A stretch of 22,230 nucleotides of DNA from a virus (Duplodnaviria; Heunggongvirae; Uroviricota; Caudoviricetes): IMG/VR virus record IMGVR_UViG_3300029567_000333, positions 1 through 22,230 of that record; one strand, written 5' to 3'. A program made the position numbers and the translations under genes. Shown here one piece after another: positions 7,951-13,014 of this stretch. The notes under the pieces were generated by a model. That model searched no databases, had not been told where the DNA came from, and was given only the letters and a program-made list of their open reading frames with translations. The stretch's first letter is position 1. Each line of letters starts with the position of its first letter.

Positions 7951-8967
7951 TTAATACAGATGAACAGAAGGCGGTAATTCTTTATTCTTAAGCCTTATCC
8001 ATGCAGAAAGATTTGTTGGTCCGTCTGGCTCATTGATATCAACATCTCGTGTGTGGTTGATTAAAACGTCTCTCGCCGTTCCGATAACATACGAGAACTC
8101 ATGACCGTAGTCGTAGCATCTGCCGGAATAGTTCGATTGAATTTGTTTTAATGCCGGATACAGTTCGCGGAATAATGCCTGTGAGCGGTTGGCATAATCC
8201 CATAACCATACAAGGCTGTTTGCTTCTTTTGCGGAAAGCTCGTTGGTGCTCTTCTCTTGTTTGCTAATGAACTCACCTTCAAGTGGAACTCGAGCTGCAA
8301 GTGACAGTGCTTCGGTAAACTGCTCCTCACTGATTTCTTTGTACGAACATCCAAAATGGGATTTCAGTGACGACCACATGGTGATCATCGCCTTCGCCTG
8401 TTTTTCTTTTGGCAGAGACTGACCGCGACTCATGACAAGTTGTTTAATGGCTTCCTGCTGTTCAGTGGTGATTTTGCCCGGCAACGCCTTTTTAGCTTTG
8501 CGCGGGTTAACCACATGGCCTTTAGTCCAGTAGTCATGCAGCACAGTAAAGCATTCTTCCTGGTACTGAATCAGTTTATCGCGGATGTCAGCACGAACTT
8601 TCTCAGGGTTGATGCTGAACAGCCATCCATTTAACTTCTTCAAAGGAAGGCAGAGTAGCTTACGAAGCTTCCCATCAGCAGCAACCATATTCATATGAAT
8701 ACAGTTGAACTTATCTAGTTGTTTCATAAGTTTTTGTTGCTGAGTACCCCAGCTCATTCCGAGGTTTTCAACGATTGGCTTCATCGCAACATATGCAACT
8801 CCTGCAGCCATGGCGGTGATAATTTGCTGACCGTTGAAGGGTACGTAAGAGGTGTTCACTGCTTCTAAAATTGCTATACTATTCATATCAGTTTTCTCGT
8901 AGTTAACTGGTAATTTAGAAGCCTCAATGGTTGCAGCCATTGGGGCTTCGCTGTTTTTAGCGACCAT
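7951..8967 (-). CDS. ant: antirepressor (Ant-like)
   Basis: N-terminal region ([37 protein letters not shown]...[16 protein letters not shown]) has the shape of phage antirepressor N-terminal domains. Lies directly 3' of an Arc-like gene and divergent from an Mnt-like gene, as in P22 immI. ATG at 8967 has a GAGGTGG Shine-Dalgarno and overlaps the arc-like stop by 11 nt. A start at 8886 is also possible. Confidence 0.65.
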
Positions 8968-9130
8968 TCGCCACCTCTTCCCTAACACCTTTTGCCAGCA
9001 AACGAACAATTGCAGAGTTCAGAGATATACAGTCCATTTCCGCCAGGCGGCGAAGGTCTTCATTCAGCCGTGATGGAAGGCGAAGGTTGAGTTTGATATT
9101 TTTGCGCTCAGTGAAAAGTGTATCTTGCAT
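8957..9130 (-). CDS. arc: Arc-like ribbon-helix-helix repressor (57 aa, missed by the ORF track)
   Basis: Translation [57 protein letters not shown] has the beta-strand plus two helices layout of the Arc/MetJ family. AAGGAG Shine-Dalgarno 9 nt before the ATG at 9130. Confidence 0.7.
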
Positions 9131-9236
9131 TATCTAATCTCCTTTATTTGGTGCCAAAGTGACGCCATGAAGGCCATAATGCCACCATTGAAATCGTATG
9201 GCAATATGGCACCATGGTTTTTTTGAGAGATTTGCA
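9131..9236. promoter_or_regulatory. divergent promoter/operator region between the arc-ant and mnt-like genes
   Basis: Minus strand: TTGCCA (9204-9199), 17-nt spacer, CATTAT (9181-9176). Plus strand: CATAAT at 9175-9180, so the two -10 hexamers overlap. Dense GCCAT/ATGGC and GGTGCCA/TGGCACC inverted motifs are candidate operator half-sites. Confidence 0.45.
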
Positions 9237-9557
9237 ATGGCCGAAAAACAAGTAAAAGACTACGACAAGTTCAACCTCCGTTTTCCTGACGGAATGCGAG
9301 ATGCTATAGCTGAACGAGCTAAACGTAACGGCAGATCAATGAACTCAGAGATTGTGCAGATACTGGAAGATGCCTTGAATGCAGAAAATACTCTTGGGGA
9401 AATAGCAGACAAAATCAACAGCGTCTCGGTTCCGCTAAATGTTGATGCGCTAGTTCAACTTCAAGCCCAGGTTATCGCCATGCAAAAAGAAATACAGGAA
9501 AAGTTCAGAGAGCAAAACGAAAAGTTAAGAGAACTGCTAAACAAAAAACCCACCTGA
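9237..9557 (+). CDS. mnt: Mnt-like ribbon-helix-helix repressor
   Basis: FNLRFPDGMRDAIAERAKRNGRSMNSEIVQILEDAL closely matches the Mnt/Arc DNA-binding region as I recall it (FNFRMP...EANGRSMNSELLQIVQDAL in P22 Mnt). C-terminal half is heptad-like and coiled-coil-prone. Start taken at the ATG at 9237 (GAGAGA Shine-Dalgarno); the longer N-terminus from 9198 has none. Confidence 0.85.
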   Translation: MAEKQVKDYDKFNLRFPDGMRDAIAERAKRNGRSMNSEIVQILEDALNAENTLGEIADKINSVSVPLNVDALVQLQAQVIAMQKEIQEKFREQNEKLRELLNKKPT

Positions 9558-9570
9558 CGGTGGGTTTTTC
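9543..9570. terminator. bidirectional rho-independent terminator between convergent genes
   Basis: A-run (9543-9548), CCCACC-tgac-GGTGGG stem-loop, then TTTTT (9565-9569). The mnt-like stop TGA lies in the loop, and the convergent minus-strand gene ends at 9571. Confidence 0.75.
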
Positions 9571-10563
9571 TTATTCTTTATCTTTTAAGTCGATGGTTCT
9601 TTGTCCAATAACCTTTTCATCTATGTATTTCTCATACTCTTCTCGAGTATCAGAAACCATTGCAATACCAGTAACCTTACCTATTTGGGTTCTAAGAGCT
9701 TTAACTCCAACCTCTGATAAAAACTGGTGTATTTTATCGTTTTTGCTGCCTTTCTCTTCTTTTGACGTTTTTGCTAAATTAAATACCTTTCCTTCACTTC
9801 TGGCTAATGGGTAGTAAATGTGATCTATCGTAAGATATTTAAACGCCCACGGTCGCCCTCTAACTGGTTTGTCTATACCATACAGACGATACCAATGCTC
9901 ATAAAGTTCAGGGGTGAACTCTCTTTCATACTCACGAGCCTCTTCAGCAACATATCGCTTATATGCTTGAATTACTTCTTCTTTTGTTCTGTCATACCCT
10001 GCCAAAGCATAAACAAGCCCCTGAATTCCCGCCTTGGCTGATGCATCAATAATTATCCTGGCTTGCTTAGCAATCCCTTCCTGACTAGAAAGCAACTTAC
10101 CTTCAGCTTTAGCGTTAGAGATTGCTCGACATAAATCAATTAAGATTGTTACATCGTAGCCATGTATTACAGGGTTAGCTGGTGTGTTCGTGCCCACCTG
10201 TTTGTATTGAAAAATAAGAGGATTTTCAAGTTTTGCCCTTAATTCATGCCCGATATACTGAGAAATAGTTTTCCCCTGAATAAACTTTGGCAACCTGCTG
10301 CCACCTTCGCCAAGACCAATCGCTTCTCCCATGCCTCTCTGGCTAATAACGGCAGTTTTGTTATCATCATTTAACACATAGCACTCAACATCAATCCCGA
10401 ATTCATGCTGGAACGATCCCTTATGCGTAGCAATTAATGGTTTATCCTTCCATCTTGCAGCCGCTGCTTTCTTTGCTATTTCAGAACGCTGCTCTTTAGT
10501 CAGCGACTTTGCGCGAGCGATTCCGCCCTTAGCTTTCCCTTCACCACTTTTCTTTTCAGTCAT
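9571..10563 (-). CDS. hypothetical protein, possibly P63C-domain-like; function unknown
   Basis: 330 aa from the ATG at 10563, which has an AAGGTG Shine-Dalgarno 8 nt upstream. Basic N-terminus (KKSGEGKAKGGIARAKSLTKEQRSEIAKKAAAARWK). The gene is visibly more AT-rich than the structural genes. The P63C resemblance is from memory and unverified. Confidence 0.45.
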   Translation of the reverse strand: MTEKKSGEGKAKGGIARAKSLTKEQRSEIAKKAAAARWKDKPLIATHKGSFQHEFGIDVECYVLNDDNKTAVISQRGMGEAIGLGEGGSRLPKFIQGKTISQYIGHELRAKLENPLIFQYKQVGTNTPANPVIHGYDVTILIDLCRAISNAKAEGKLLSSQEGIAKQARIIIDASAKAGIQGLVYALAGYDRTKEEVIQAYKRYVAEEAREYEREFTPELYEHWYRLYGIDKPVRGRPWAFKYLTIDHIYYPLARSEGKVFNLAKTSKEEKGSKNDKIHQFLSEVGVKALRTQIGKVTGIAMVSDTREEYEKYIDEKVIGQRTIDLKDKE

Positions 10564-10564
10564 A

Positions 10565-10654
10565 ATGCAAGCACCTTTGCTGTGATATATGCTTGCATTA
10601 TATGCACTGTACCCACATACAAGCAAGCATAAAACAAAAGCAAAATGCTTGCAT
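10565..10654. promoter_or_regulatory. array of four 10-bp near-palindromes ATGC(W)(W)GCAT with a putative promoter
   Basis: ATGCAAGCAc at 10565-10574, ATGCTTGCAT at 10589-10598, aaGCAAGCAT at 10621-10630, ATGCTTGCAT at 10645-10654, giving two units of inverted half-sites 24 bp apart. On the minus strand a perfect TATAAT (10602-10597) with a weak TTGCTT -35 lies among them, and the repeats overlap the -35, the transcription start and the Shine-Dalgarno. Confidence 0.55.
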
Positions 10655-10771
10655 TGCAACCGCACTACTCCAACTACACAGTATCATCTGGTATCCTGCG
10701 TAAAACCGAGTGTTGCGTGCTTTTGCTTAAGTTAACGGATACAAACATAGGAAACGTTACAAGGGGAAAGA

Positions 10772-11230
10772 ATGAAATCCAGATTTTTCACAATAGCAAT
10801 ATTTTCTTCCGTTCTTCTATCACTCGCAGCTTATGCTGCATCCGACAAAGATAAGGAAAAAATGATGTCTTTAATAAAAGATGCTTCTCCTTATGTTGCA
10901 GGCATGGGCAAAAGCATTGATGAAGTTTGTCAGGATATGGCTAACGACATGGTAAAAAAGTATGGAAATCAACTTAGTGCTATTGGCAAGTCACCGTCAG
11001 ATATACGAGATTCATCGTATGGTATATGCTTTGACGCTGCATCTTCAGCATCATTATCGCAATCCATAGAAGAAGTAAGCATGTGGAAAAATGCAGCAAT
11101 GCAAAACATTAACGCCACATTCCGAGGCGAGAATGAGCAATCTCCCGCGCGAAAATTTCTCGTTGAGACAATTGATCACTCTGAGAAAATGGCAAAAACA
11201 ATTGCATTCATGCGGGAAATTAGTCAATAG
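10772..11230 (+). CDS. small secreted (periplasmic) protein of unknown function
   Basis: N-terminal signal peptide (MKSR, hydrophobic core FFTIAIFSSVLLSLAA, AYA-AS cleavage motif) with no lipobox cysteine. Two Cys in the mature part. AAGGGGA Shine-Dalgarno. AT-rich. Converges on the tape measure gene with an 8-nt gap. Confidence 0.65.
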   Translation: MKSRFFTIAIFSSVLLSLAAYAASDKDKEKMMSLIKDASPYVAGMGKSIDEVCQDMANDMVKKYGNQLSAIGKSPSDIRDSSYGICFDAASSASLSQSIEEVSMWKNAAMQNINATFRGENEQSPARKFLVETIDHSEKMAKTIAFMREISQ

Positions 11231-11238
11231 CAAATCTG

Positions 11239-13014
11239 CTAAGGCACTGCACTTGAAAATGCCTGATTTACTGATGATCTGCGATTCAACTCCTTAAATC
11301 CTTCGGTTAGTTTTGAGGATTGATCCGTTTTGGCAATTACCTTTACCTCTCCTATGTGCTGGCTGTTGTAATTGTTAACAACGCTTTGGGTATAGGATTG
11401 ATTTGCAGATCCATTAGCCAATCTTTGCTGAGTTTGGTAGTAAGCGGCATTGCTATTTTTCGTTGGGTTACCATAATCAAGACCCCGCTTCCAATCTGGA
11501 TAACCTTCATGCCTAGCCATATAGGCGCTAAGTTTTGCCATAACCTCTGGATCTGAGAGGTTTAGCTTATCATTGGCACCAACGCCCATAGACTTAGAAA
11601 CCTGGTCAATATACGCCTTTGTGTTGTTTTCTGAGGATGGTGCCCACTTGCTTATTATTCCTTGCAACGTATCAAGCTTATCTCTTTTGTAGTATAGAGT
11701 CAGTTGATTCCTGGCGGCCTCCCAACCCTCTTCTGGGTCGAAGTATTGAGCAAATCCGTCTTTGTCTCTTCTTCTGTTTCCAGTAGCTTTAAGATTTAAT
11801 GGGTTATTGTTTCTGTCAGGCCTGTTGACACCATTTTTGTTAGGAGGAATCTCTTTATTTGGATCGTCATAATCCAGCCCAATGAGCCTTTCAAGCCAAT
11901 GCTGCTGAAATGCGAATGGCCGCATCTCATCAGGAACATCTTTATACTGGTCTTGTACCATCTGCCCAAAAATACCAACAGCACCGATTAATCCCAGCTT
12001 GCTTCCTAACCCCTTGCCGCTAAGAAGAGCCATGGCAGCAAGAATGCCCAATGCGTTTCCAGCGCCACCAACGGCTTTAACAAAACCATCAATACCTGTA
12101 CTCAGGTTCCTGAAGAACCCAACAATGTCACCCTTGTTGTTTTTCAGCCACTCTAAAAACTCCTGTTCAGCTTTAAGCACTTCAGGGCCAAATGTAGCCA
12201 TTAATTCTTGTTTAACCTGAGCAAATTGCGAGTCAAGGGCTTTAGTCGTAGCAAGAATGTTGCGCTGTGCTTCTTCCTGCTCTTTGGTCATCTGCCATCG
12301 TTTTTCTTCCTCAGATACCATCTGCACAGCTTTTCCGCTTTTAATATCCCCGGCAAGATTAGGGTCATAACCAAAAGCAGAAAGCACTTGCATTAACTGT
12401 TTCTCGTTATGGTTCTTCCCATATTTCTGAAATTCCGCCAGAGCATCTTCTGATTTACCTCCAAGCTTACTAATATCAATGCCTGTTCTCGCTCCAGTTG
12501 TTAGTAAATTCTGAGCCTCCGGTGTAAGTCCGCCGAAAATTGTTGGGTCTTCTATATTGGCAAGCGCCATCCTGGCGCTCATCTGTGCCCCAAGGAACGC
12601 GCCGCCGTTCTGACCAATTCGGGAGAATCCATACTGAGTACCAAGAACGTTACTGGCGCTTGTTCCAAGCATTCTCCCCATATTACTGGCTCTTACAATT
12701 GACTCCGAAGTACTTTCAAATGCACGATGAATGCCAATGGCTACGGCAGTCAACACACCGCCAACAGCCACAAAGCGTGTCGAAAGCCCCAAAAAACCAT
12801 TAAATGAAGCAGTCAACCCTTTCATTGCAACAGCAGCTTTGTCGGTCTCCTTAGCCGTTTTGGACATCGAGGAGGTTGTTGACCTTTCTATCGCAGATGA
12901 AGATCTCTCTATTTCGTTTTTAAGGTCTTGTGCTTCCTGCTTTACTTTCCGTTTTCCATTCAGGAATTCATCGGCCTTAATTGTGACCTTGTAGGCCAAC
13001 TCATTGATAATCAT
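11239..13014 (-). CDS. tail tape measure protein
   Basis: 591 aa, directly downstream of the chaperone pair. Gly/Ala-rich hydrophobic segments (AVGGVLTAVAIGI, GGAGNALGILAAMALLSGKGLGSKLGLIGAVGIFG) and a charged coiled-coil-like stretch. C-terminal region (NNNPLNLKATG...YFDPEEGWEAARNQL...) looks like a separate globular domain of unknown identity. Confidence 0.7.
   Translation of the reverse strand: MIINELAYKVTIKADEFLNGKRKVKQEAQDLKNEIERSSSAIERSTTSSMSKTAKETDKAAVAMKGLTASFNGFLGLSTRFVAVGGVLTAVAIGIHRAFESTSESIVRASNMGRMLGTSASNVLGTQYGFSRIGQNGGAFLGAQMSARMALANIEDPTIFGGLTPEAQNLLTTGARTGIDISKLGGKSEDALAEFQKYGKNHNEKQLMQVLSAFGYDPNLAGDIKSGKAVQMVSEEEKRWQMTKEQEEAQRNILATTKALDSQFAQVKQELMATFGPEVLKAEQEFLEWLKNNKGDIVGFFRNLSTGIDGFVKAVGGAGNALGILAAMALLSGKGLGSKLGLIGAVGIFGQMVQDQYKDVPDEMRPFAFQQHWLERLIGLDYDDPNKEIPPNKNGVNRPDRNNNPLNLKATGNRRRDKDGFAQYFDPEEGWEAARNQLTLYYKRDKLDTLQGIISKWAPSSENNTKAYIDQVSKSMGVGANDKLNLSDPEVMAKLSAYMARHEGYPDWKRGLDYGNPTKNSNAAYYQTQQRLANGSANQSYTQSVVNNYNSQHIGEVKVIAKTDQSSKLTEGFKELNRRSSVNQAFSSAVP

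Follow-up and report, generated by a model that had tools for sequence, protein, structure and literature searches.

A predicted periplasmic protein encoded in a polymorphic cassette slot beside the tape-measure gene of E217-like prophages

Introduction

Why would a temperate phage carry, against the direction of its late genes and directly beside the gene for its tape-measure protein (TMP), a small gene whose product is predicted to leave the cytoplasm? The question is raised by an open reading frame (ORF) of 152 amino acids (aa), here called ORF152 (positions 10772 to 11230, plus strand), in IMG/VR virus record IMGVR_UViG_3300029567_000333; positions 1 to 22,230 of that record were analyzed and are hereafter referred to as the window. 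We show that ORF152 is a real accessory gene, maintained by selection, in a temperate E217-like myovirus prophage and that it represents one allele (family A) of a polymorphic cassette slot. By analogy with known systems, we further propose, with a probability of about 0.4, that its product is an entry-blocking (superinfection-exclusion) periplasmic protein. A prophage accessory gene for an envelope protein within a tail operon is of a well-known kind. What is new here is a slot that combines one conserved upstream element and at least seven interchangeable predicted-exported proteins with a boundary fixed by the TMP stop codon.

An accessory gene under purifying selection

ORF152 starts with an ATG preceded at 5 nucleotides (nt) by a Shine-Dalgarno sequence (AAGGGGA, 10761-10767) and converges on the gene for a 591-aa TMP (11239-13014, minus strand; PHROGs 873, 2013, and 2276, tape-measure or lytic tail protein). 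The stop codons of the two genes lie 8 nt apart (11231-11238), a spacer that measures 8, 3, 0, or -4 nt in relatives. A preliminary description, made from the sequence alone, had presented ORF152 as an AT-rich gene for a two-cysteine protein, located opposite to the late operon, 8 nt from the TMP stop and without an obvious terminator; all of these features are borne out. The GC content is 0.390 relative to 0.453 for the window (4th percentile of 459-nt windows), and the product has exactly two cysteines, C53 (codon 10928-10930) and C86 (codon 11027-11029), both in the mature part. No terminator-like hairpin was found between or near the ORF152 and TMP stops, and the nearest plus-strand candidate is a weak site at 11510-11527, within the TMP gene.

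A search of 5.8 billion proteins recovered 29 homologues of ORF152 (44-99% identity), the hosts of which are E. coli, Citrobacter, Enterobacter, Salmonella, Yersinia, and Cronobacter. In a profile search of 1.84 billion cluster representatives, family A amounted to just 9 clusters, and it occurs in 1 of 5426 complete E. coli genomes. Neither a tblastn search of ORF152 against 50,697 phage records and 72,556 plasmids nor a first scan of genome contigs with the family-A alignment produced a match. Family A is uncharacterized, and no relative with a known function could be detected: none of the 29 homologues bears a Pfam domain or informative name, and the RefSeq accessions of families A, B, and D (the latter two described below) are mentioned in no paper of the literature searched. 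One JGI record does label a family-A member “ABC-type sugar transport system substrate-binding protein,” an assignment that is unsupported here.

The preliminary description had named conservation as a check on the gene, and by this measure ORF152 is real. Between loci, the proportion of synonymous differences (pS) is 0.68-0.87 and thus saturated, while that of nonsynonymous differences (pN) in the mature part ranges from 0.11 (window versus locus L003) up to 0.31. With pN far under pS among the homologues, we conclude that the protein is under purifying selection. C53 and C86 are invariant in an alignment of 25 sequences.

The gene had also been described as a moron, which holds only in part. 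ORF152 is accessory, AT-richer than its surroundings, encoded on the opposite strand, and present or absent among relatives, as the term implies. It is not a sporadic insertion, however, but one allele of an old, dedicated slot with a common upstream element, and it lacks the terminator of its own that a moron would carry, with stops that are 8 nt apart here and overlap in relatives.

A polymorphic cassette slot at the tape-measure stop codon

All retrieved family-A loci are convergent to, and abut, the TMP gene of an E217-like tail module. They include E. coli WS4437A-1 (L001), Citrobacter and related contigs (L003-L005), Yersinia (L006-L008), and IMG/VR prophages (L009-L011, L016, and L018); the most distant members (P0044, P0047, and P0029; loci L033-L036) occupy the same TMP-abutting place. 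The stop-to-stop gap is 8 or -4 nt at the family-A loci where it was measured. Other cargo near the slot (Arc, Ant, P63C, KilA-N, Bro-N, and others) differs by locus, and in L006 the family-A gene stands alone between the TMP and baseplate genes.

In related phages, the slot holds at least six further sequence families: B (152 aa with a signal peptide and two cysteines; L002, E. coli SC407), C (about 250 aa; L019 and L030), D (157 aa; L038), E (149 aa; L031), F (135 aa; L025), and G (117-133 aa; L052 and L064). Homologues of family B are found in Citrobacter, Enterobacter, Salmonella, Yersinia ruckeri, and Edwardsiella, and the family occurs in 4 of the 5426 complete E. coli genomes. Two longer proteins, P0045 (273 aa) and P0046 (241 aa), have family A as their N-terminal domain, and P0045's C-terminal domain is family D. 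Family G shows a C-N-x-x-A-x-x-L-V-E motif that is family-A-like. L026 and L029 carry nothing in the slot.

The right boundary of the slot is the TMP stop codon, at which the cassette ends or which it overlaps. Breakpoints in two pairs of loci indicate that cassettes are swapped between two arms. The window and L038 (family D) share about 94% identity in the aligned stretch upstream and are unrelated beginning with the start codon. Between the family-A genes of L006 and L063, the signal-peptide part has a pN of 0.05 and a pS of 0.06 while the mature part has a pS of 0.84, a contrast that points to a recombination breakpoint just past the signal peptide. The left arm is the upstream platform, sometimes together with the signal peptide, and the right arm is the 3' end of the TMP gene, which is 97.6% identical between the window and L002.

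Two further observations concern slot occupants. The genes of families A and B are unrelated by sequence, yet both are 459 nt long (152 aa) in E. coli prophages (window, 10772-11230; L002, 4531-4989). In L020 (5376-5576) and L032 (5388-5588), the slot is taken by a predicted membrane protein of 66 aa that is encoded on the late-operon strand; both loci have TMPs of the SLT type and no convergent cassette.

A slot that accommodates many unrelated cargo families could also be read as a convenient place for lysogenic-conversion or host-fitness factors unrelated to phage entry, proteins that would alter envelope physiology, stress tolerance, or the interaction with an animal host or a competitor. 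Prophage-borne predicted export, lower GC, and an orientation opposite to the late genes are in keeping with such a role, as is the origin of a strain with the identical locus, a human stool isolate; many moron functions of this kind are on record (PMC3594210). Fitness factors are usually found in varied contexts and with chromosomal homologues, however, and family A has never been seen outside one position in one phage lineage. The rarity of families A and B among complete E. coli genomes likewise argues against this role, and we regard this explanation as possible but on the whole unlikely.

A conserved upstream element

The element common to these cassettes occupies 10713-10771 (plus strand) in the window and consists of a direct repeat with a 10-nt period (TTGCGT, 10713-10718, and TTGCTT, 10723-10728), a -10-like hexamer (TACAAA, 10740-10745; TAGAAT in most relatives), and the Shine-Dalgarno sequence. 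The stretch of about 55 nt before the start codon is recognizably conserved in 18 of 18 cassettes compared, across families A-G and in front of unrelated ORFs, with the weakest resemblance in L023 and L028. The block often opens with a GCCCACC..GTGGGC hairpin and continues as TTGCGTG-TTWT-TTGCNTC-AGNTAATGG-RTAGAAT, about 12 nt, AAAAC, and AAGGA, with the ATG 6 nt on. Here, TAGAAT is a good -10 hexamer, and the position of a -35 hexamer is taken by the repeat (TTGCNT-N4-TTGCNT). The element could be an activator-dependent promoter, although this is only a guess. Promoters for sigma-54, sigma-E, and sigma-32 were rejected by eye on the grounds of spacing and key bases.

A pattern search with the element met true slots in about 8 of 30 matches, and the rest were mostly chance or unrelated. 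Among the latter was a motif of about 32 nt (TGCGTGTTATTGGGTNGAATGGATTGTAGAAT, with variants) that recurs and is unrelated to the prophage slot. It was found in many contigs of giant-virus metagenome-assembled genomes and in other environmental viral contigs (L039, L043-L045, L047, L049, L050, L054, L055, L057-L060, and L065-L068).

Predicted export and structure

The preliminary description had assigned ORF152 a Sec signal peptide with the cleavage motif AYA-AS and no lipobox, and hence a periplasmic product, a prediction that fits the sequence. Signal peptides were judged throughout by a crude sequence rule and hydropathy. Residues 1-22 (10772-10837, plus strand) form the putative signal peptide, MKSRFFTIAIFSSVLLSLAAYA-ASDK, with predicted cleavage between A22 and A23. 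It is laid out as MKSR, then FFTIAIFSSVLLSLAA, then AYA-AS (i.e., two basic residues, a 16-residue uncharged hydrophobic core, and A-x-A at -3/-1). The Kyte-Doolittle mean over 15 residues reaches 2.17 in the core and is at most 0.65 past residue 25, so that hydropathy gives no further transmembrane segment in the mature part; a lipobox is absent, there being no cysteine at +1. The mature protein (10838-11230 including the stop codon) would comprise 130 aa with a calculated mass of 14.3 kDa and pI of 5.2. Only 3 of the 37 window ORFs of at least 100 aa pass the crude rule, and the two besides ORF152 are a probable antisense non-gene and an over-extended start.

The n-h-c architecture of the signal is kept in full-length homologues while its sequence drifts. 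In the alignment, the N-terminal 22-25 residues are variable but always feature MK, a hydrophobic stretch, and small-x-small, and pN is 0.36-0.49 in the signal-peptide part versus 0.11-0.31 in the mature part (pairs window-L003 to window-L036). Predicted export is also a property of the slot at large: 19 of 20 distinct occupants pass the crude rule, and the twentieth (L025, MKKYLLLSVFFSSGAFA) has a signal peptide by eye. Likewise, past the predicted signal peptide, two or four cysteines are counted in 19 of the 20; L023 departs from this with three, including one within the signal-peptide region.

Some annotations instead place the start at Met31, which would yield a cytoplasmic product of about 121 aa and no export. 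Among the annotated forms are one of 121 aa (P0003), on 209 contigs, and one of 122 aa (P0027); Met31 is invariant in the family-A alignment, and in the window it is preceded by AAGGA. That AAGGA is not kept in L003, L006, and L016, however, whereas the Shine-Dalgarno sequence at the first ATG is recognizable in most cassettes and across all families. We therefore dropped the internal start and prefer the long, exported form. The 30 codons upstream of Met31 are moreover open, with MK, hydrophobic core, and small-x-small kept in full-length homologues, and the two conserved cysteines fit an oxidizing compartment. A non-exported product is, in our estimation, very improbable.

An AlphaFold2 model of ORF152 built from the 25-sequence alignment (mean predicted local distance difference test score, pLDDT, 86.6; predicted template-modeling score, pTM, 0.78) is confident and shows an all-helical bundle with helices at residues 25-38, 49-69, 75-94, 99-116, and 119-151 and a disordered signal peptide. 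C53 and C86 reside on consecutive helices. Given this placement, their invariance, and the predicted periplasmic location, the two residues probably form a disulfide staple. By prediction, then, ORF152 encodes an acidic periplasmic protein of about 14 kDa that is exported by the Sec route, soluble, and all-alpha. Family B yields a similar picture (pLDDT 84.3, all-alpha), with C42 and C72 on consecutive long helices much as in family A. In an hhalign comparison of the two families, signal peptides alone align, and homology is not demonstrable.

Foldseek comparison of the ORF152 model with PDB and BFVD gave nothing significant (best E = 0.47), and a sequence-profile search of PDB gave chance matches only. 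Pfam, PHROGs, NCBIfam, and PADLOC contain no matches for distant family-A members or for families B, C, and E.

A small, predicted-exported helical protein with a probable disulfide could alternatively be an orphan periplasmic immunity protein that protects the lysogen against a competitor's toxin, for example a peptidoglycan hydrolase of a type VI secretion system (T6SS), a bacteriocin or tailocin component, or an exogenous lysozyme. The presence of unrelated alternative alleles at one locus does resemble immunity-gene arrays. Nevertheless, none of the solved immunity proteins or lysozyme inhibitors matches the protein, and no toxin gene is nearby. The Ivy, MliC, and Pli inhibitors are beta-rich (PMC7677548), and neither this fold nor the Pfam match that would place a protein with the periplasmic lysozyme inhibitors (Ivy, MliC/PliC, PliG, or PliI) is found in the all-alpha ORF152. 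We consider an immunity function decidedly unlikely.

The tape-measure protein and candidate targets

Residues ~395-505 of the TMP (window 11500-11832) match two PDB chains, 7q47 (“Endolysin”; E 2.9e-11) and 9vvp_L (Gp29, in its N-terminal part; E 9.1e-14), as well as proteins annotated as “tail injection transglycosylase” or “endolysin” in many phages. From this homology and these annotations, we infer that the TMP carries a muralytic-type domain. In other relatives, the endolysin-like region is replaced by an SLT domain. The domain lies within a mosaic patch (aa ~345-510; 11485-11982, minus strand): the TMPs of the window and L002 are 99-100% identical at aa 1-340 and 511-591 and 53-80% identical inside the patch. 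Because this patch differs together with the cassette (A in the window, B in L002), it is suggestive of a link between cassette and TMP, albeit as a single case.

The strictest form of such a link would be a Spackle-like inhibitor of the muralytic domain in the C-terminal part of an incoming TMP of the same type. The endolysin-like domain and its replacement by SLT in relatives, the abutting position of ORF152, the otherwise identical TMPs of the window and L002, and a gross build shared with Spackle (periplasmic, helical, one disulfide) would all suit this idea. Cassette type, however, does not track domain type. L006 and L007 have an identical family-A protein, yet the TMP beside it is endolysin-like in the former and of the SLT type in the latter, and the distant family-A members P0044 and P0047 also adjoin SLT TMPs. 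Conversely, closely similar TMP domains occur with different slot contents: family A in L016, family C in L019, and no secreted gene in L017 (by our reading, the L016 and L019 domains are ~92% identical). Co-variation of cassette and TMP was dropped as a rule, since L006 versus L007, L016 versus L019, L030, L033, and L035 contradict a strict link. As ORF152 also lacks fold or sequence similarity to Spackle, we think a strict inhibitor of this kind quite unlikely.

The preliminary description had raised superinfection exclusion or a host-fitness role, and the reading that we favor is superinfection exclusion at the level of the envelope. In this model, the upstream element would drive whichever ORF occupies the slot. 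ORF152 has the same direction as a Mnt-like gene and opposes the late operon, an orientation from which we suggest that it is probably expressed in the prophage, with convergent late transcription silencing it upon induction. In the periplasm, its product would protect the lysogen by interfering with genome delivery of incoming related phages, and might act on the ejected tape-measure or ejection proteins or on a host periplasmic or inner-membrane partner that they need. What makes exclusion plausible is the gene's location and direction together with the parallels to P22 sieA/immI and T4 Spackle. A role in lysis or virion assembly was considered and dropped, as relatives may have nothing or another gene at this place and ORF152 runs against the late operon.

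Several results weigh against exclusion. Pfam, PHROGs, NCBIfam, and PADLOC hold no match for ORF152 (zero families in PADLOC), and no homology or fold match was found that links it to phage exclusion. SieA and gp15 are membrane proteins, and ORF152 has no transmembrane segment. Family C, like family A, pairs with both TMP domain types, and the identical protein shared by L006 and L007 counts here as well. The consensus scanner detected no canonical sigma-70 -35/-10 pair in the upstream element, and the hexamer of the window and its closest E. coli relatives, TACAAA, should be weaker than TAGAAT. Finally, window and L003 are 73% identical in family A and 44% identical in the adjacent TMP; a cassette more conserved than its TMP does not look like one side of an arms race. 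If family A does block entry, its greater conservation and its occurrence in hosts with different receptors would point to a conserved target (a component of the delivery machinery that phages have in common, or a periplasmic or inner-membrane factor of the host).

Neighboring genes in the window

The E217-like tail module of the window comprises a DUF3383 sheath, an E217_Gp32 tube protein, a tail assembly chaperone, and the TMP. Between the TMP and baseplate genes are ORF152, a P63C-domain gene, a Mnt/Arc-like gene, and a small Arc-like gene with Ant. An immI-like module (7951-9557) is thereby situated inside the tail operon. It contains the Ant anti-repressor gene (longest ORF 7951-9009, minus strand; RefSeq annotates a shorter product in L001), the small Arc-like gene (8957-9130, minus strand), overlapping divergent promoter-like sites (9129-9204), and the Mnt/Arc-like ribbon-helix-helix gene (9198-9557, plus strand), which is followed by a strong A-tract/T-tract hairpin terminator (AAAAACCCACCTGACGGTGGGTTTTT, 9544-9569). 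Many Stx-converting phages have a segment that is about 97% identical to positions 9000-9564. Many other loci have a hairpin very similar to that at 9544-9569 immediately upstream of their cassette platform; the one in L006 scores as a minus-strand terminator right ahead of the baseplate genes, an odd place for one in a late operon.

The P63C-domain gene (9571-10563, minus strand; PF10546; phrog_2384, function unknown) is variable cargo to the left of the cassette, inserted between the terminator of the Mnt-like gene and the cassette platform. Its start (MTEKK) follows the RefSeq annotation of related loci. The longest ORF (9571-10665, minus strand), with a GTG start, would add a 34-residue hydrophobic, lipobox-like N-terminus that is not in those annotations.

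Discussion

Taken as a whole, the slot could be a dedicated library of interchangeable periplasmic defenses (families A-G) under one possibly regulator-controlled promoter element, in which each cassette may neutralize the envelope-crossing machinery of a different phage or some other attack that acts in the periplasm. We hold this broader proposal to be rather doubtful; were it true, soluble Spackle-like exclusion would be widespread and diversified in temperate phages rather than a peculiarity of T4. Should the cassettes prove to be host-fitness factors instead, the upstream element and its direct repeat would still exemplify modular cargo exchange at a fixed expression site.

The slot adjoins the gene for a protein that crosses the periplasm first during infection, and the seven uncharacterized families that it holds constitute a compact, directly testable panel, one that could reveal how contractile-tailed temperate phages are stopped in the periplasm. 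These results overturn nothing, but the slot of ORF152 merits a test at the bench.

Comparison with known exclusion systems

Most characterized exclusion proteins are membrane proteins or lipoproteins, and to our knowledge hardly any phage-exclusion protein other than T4 Spackle is soluble and periplasmic. Llp of T5 and Cor of phi80 and N15 are exported exclusion proteins encoded beside the virion gene that they block; both are outer-membrane lipoproteins that mask FhuA. ORF152 differs from them in that it lacks a lipobox and that family A spans host genera with different receptors.

In T4, Spackle is a soluble, compact periplasmic helical bundle with a cleavable signal peptide and one disulfide that inhibits the tail lysozyme of superinfecting phage (PMC7677548). 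ORF152 is likewise predicted to be periplasmic and helical, and it adjoins the gene for a tail protein with a muralytic-type domain. The two proteins nonetheless share no sequence or fold similarity and differ in mature length (130 aa in ORF152, 75 aa in Spackle). Furthermore, Spackle is the product of an early gene of a lytic phage, whereas ORF152 belongs to a temperate prophage and is distributed independently of muralytic domain type.

The gp15 of HK97 is encoded by a moron that adjoins the TMP gene and is expressed from the prophage, and the exclusion it confers depends on the tail region of the incoming phage (PMC3594210). This small protein of the inner membrane is a YebO-family member that has chromosomal homologues, and its gene comes with its own promoter and terminator. 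ORF152 is similarly an accessory gene in a tail operon beside the TMP gene; unlike gp15, its product is predicted to be soluble and periplasmic, the gene has no terminator, and there are no homologues outside the slot.

P22 SieA offers a parallel in genome layout; ORF152 has no homology to it. Judged by its coordinates, ORF152 takes the position and the apparent prophage-expressed orientation that SieA and gp15 have in common, with a modeled soluble helical bundle in place of their inner-membrane topology. In P22, immI with sieA follows directly after the last ejection-protein gene, inside the late operon, and the window mirrors this succession of an ejection-protein gene and a mnt/arc/ant module. 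The SieA proteins fall into three types with under 30% identity, and escape mutations map to the ejection proteins gp16 and gp20 (PMC10883804). The slot beside the TMP gene resembles SieA in this diversity, too: where SieA has several little-identical sequence types, the slot has at least seven cassette families.

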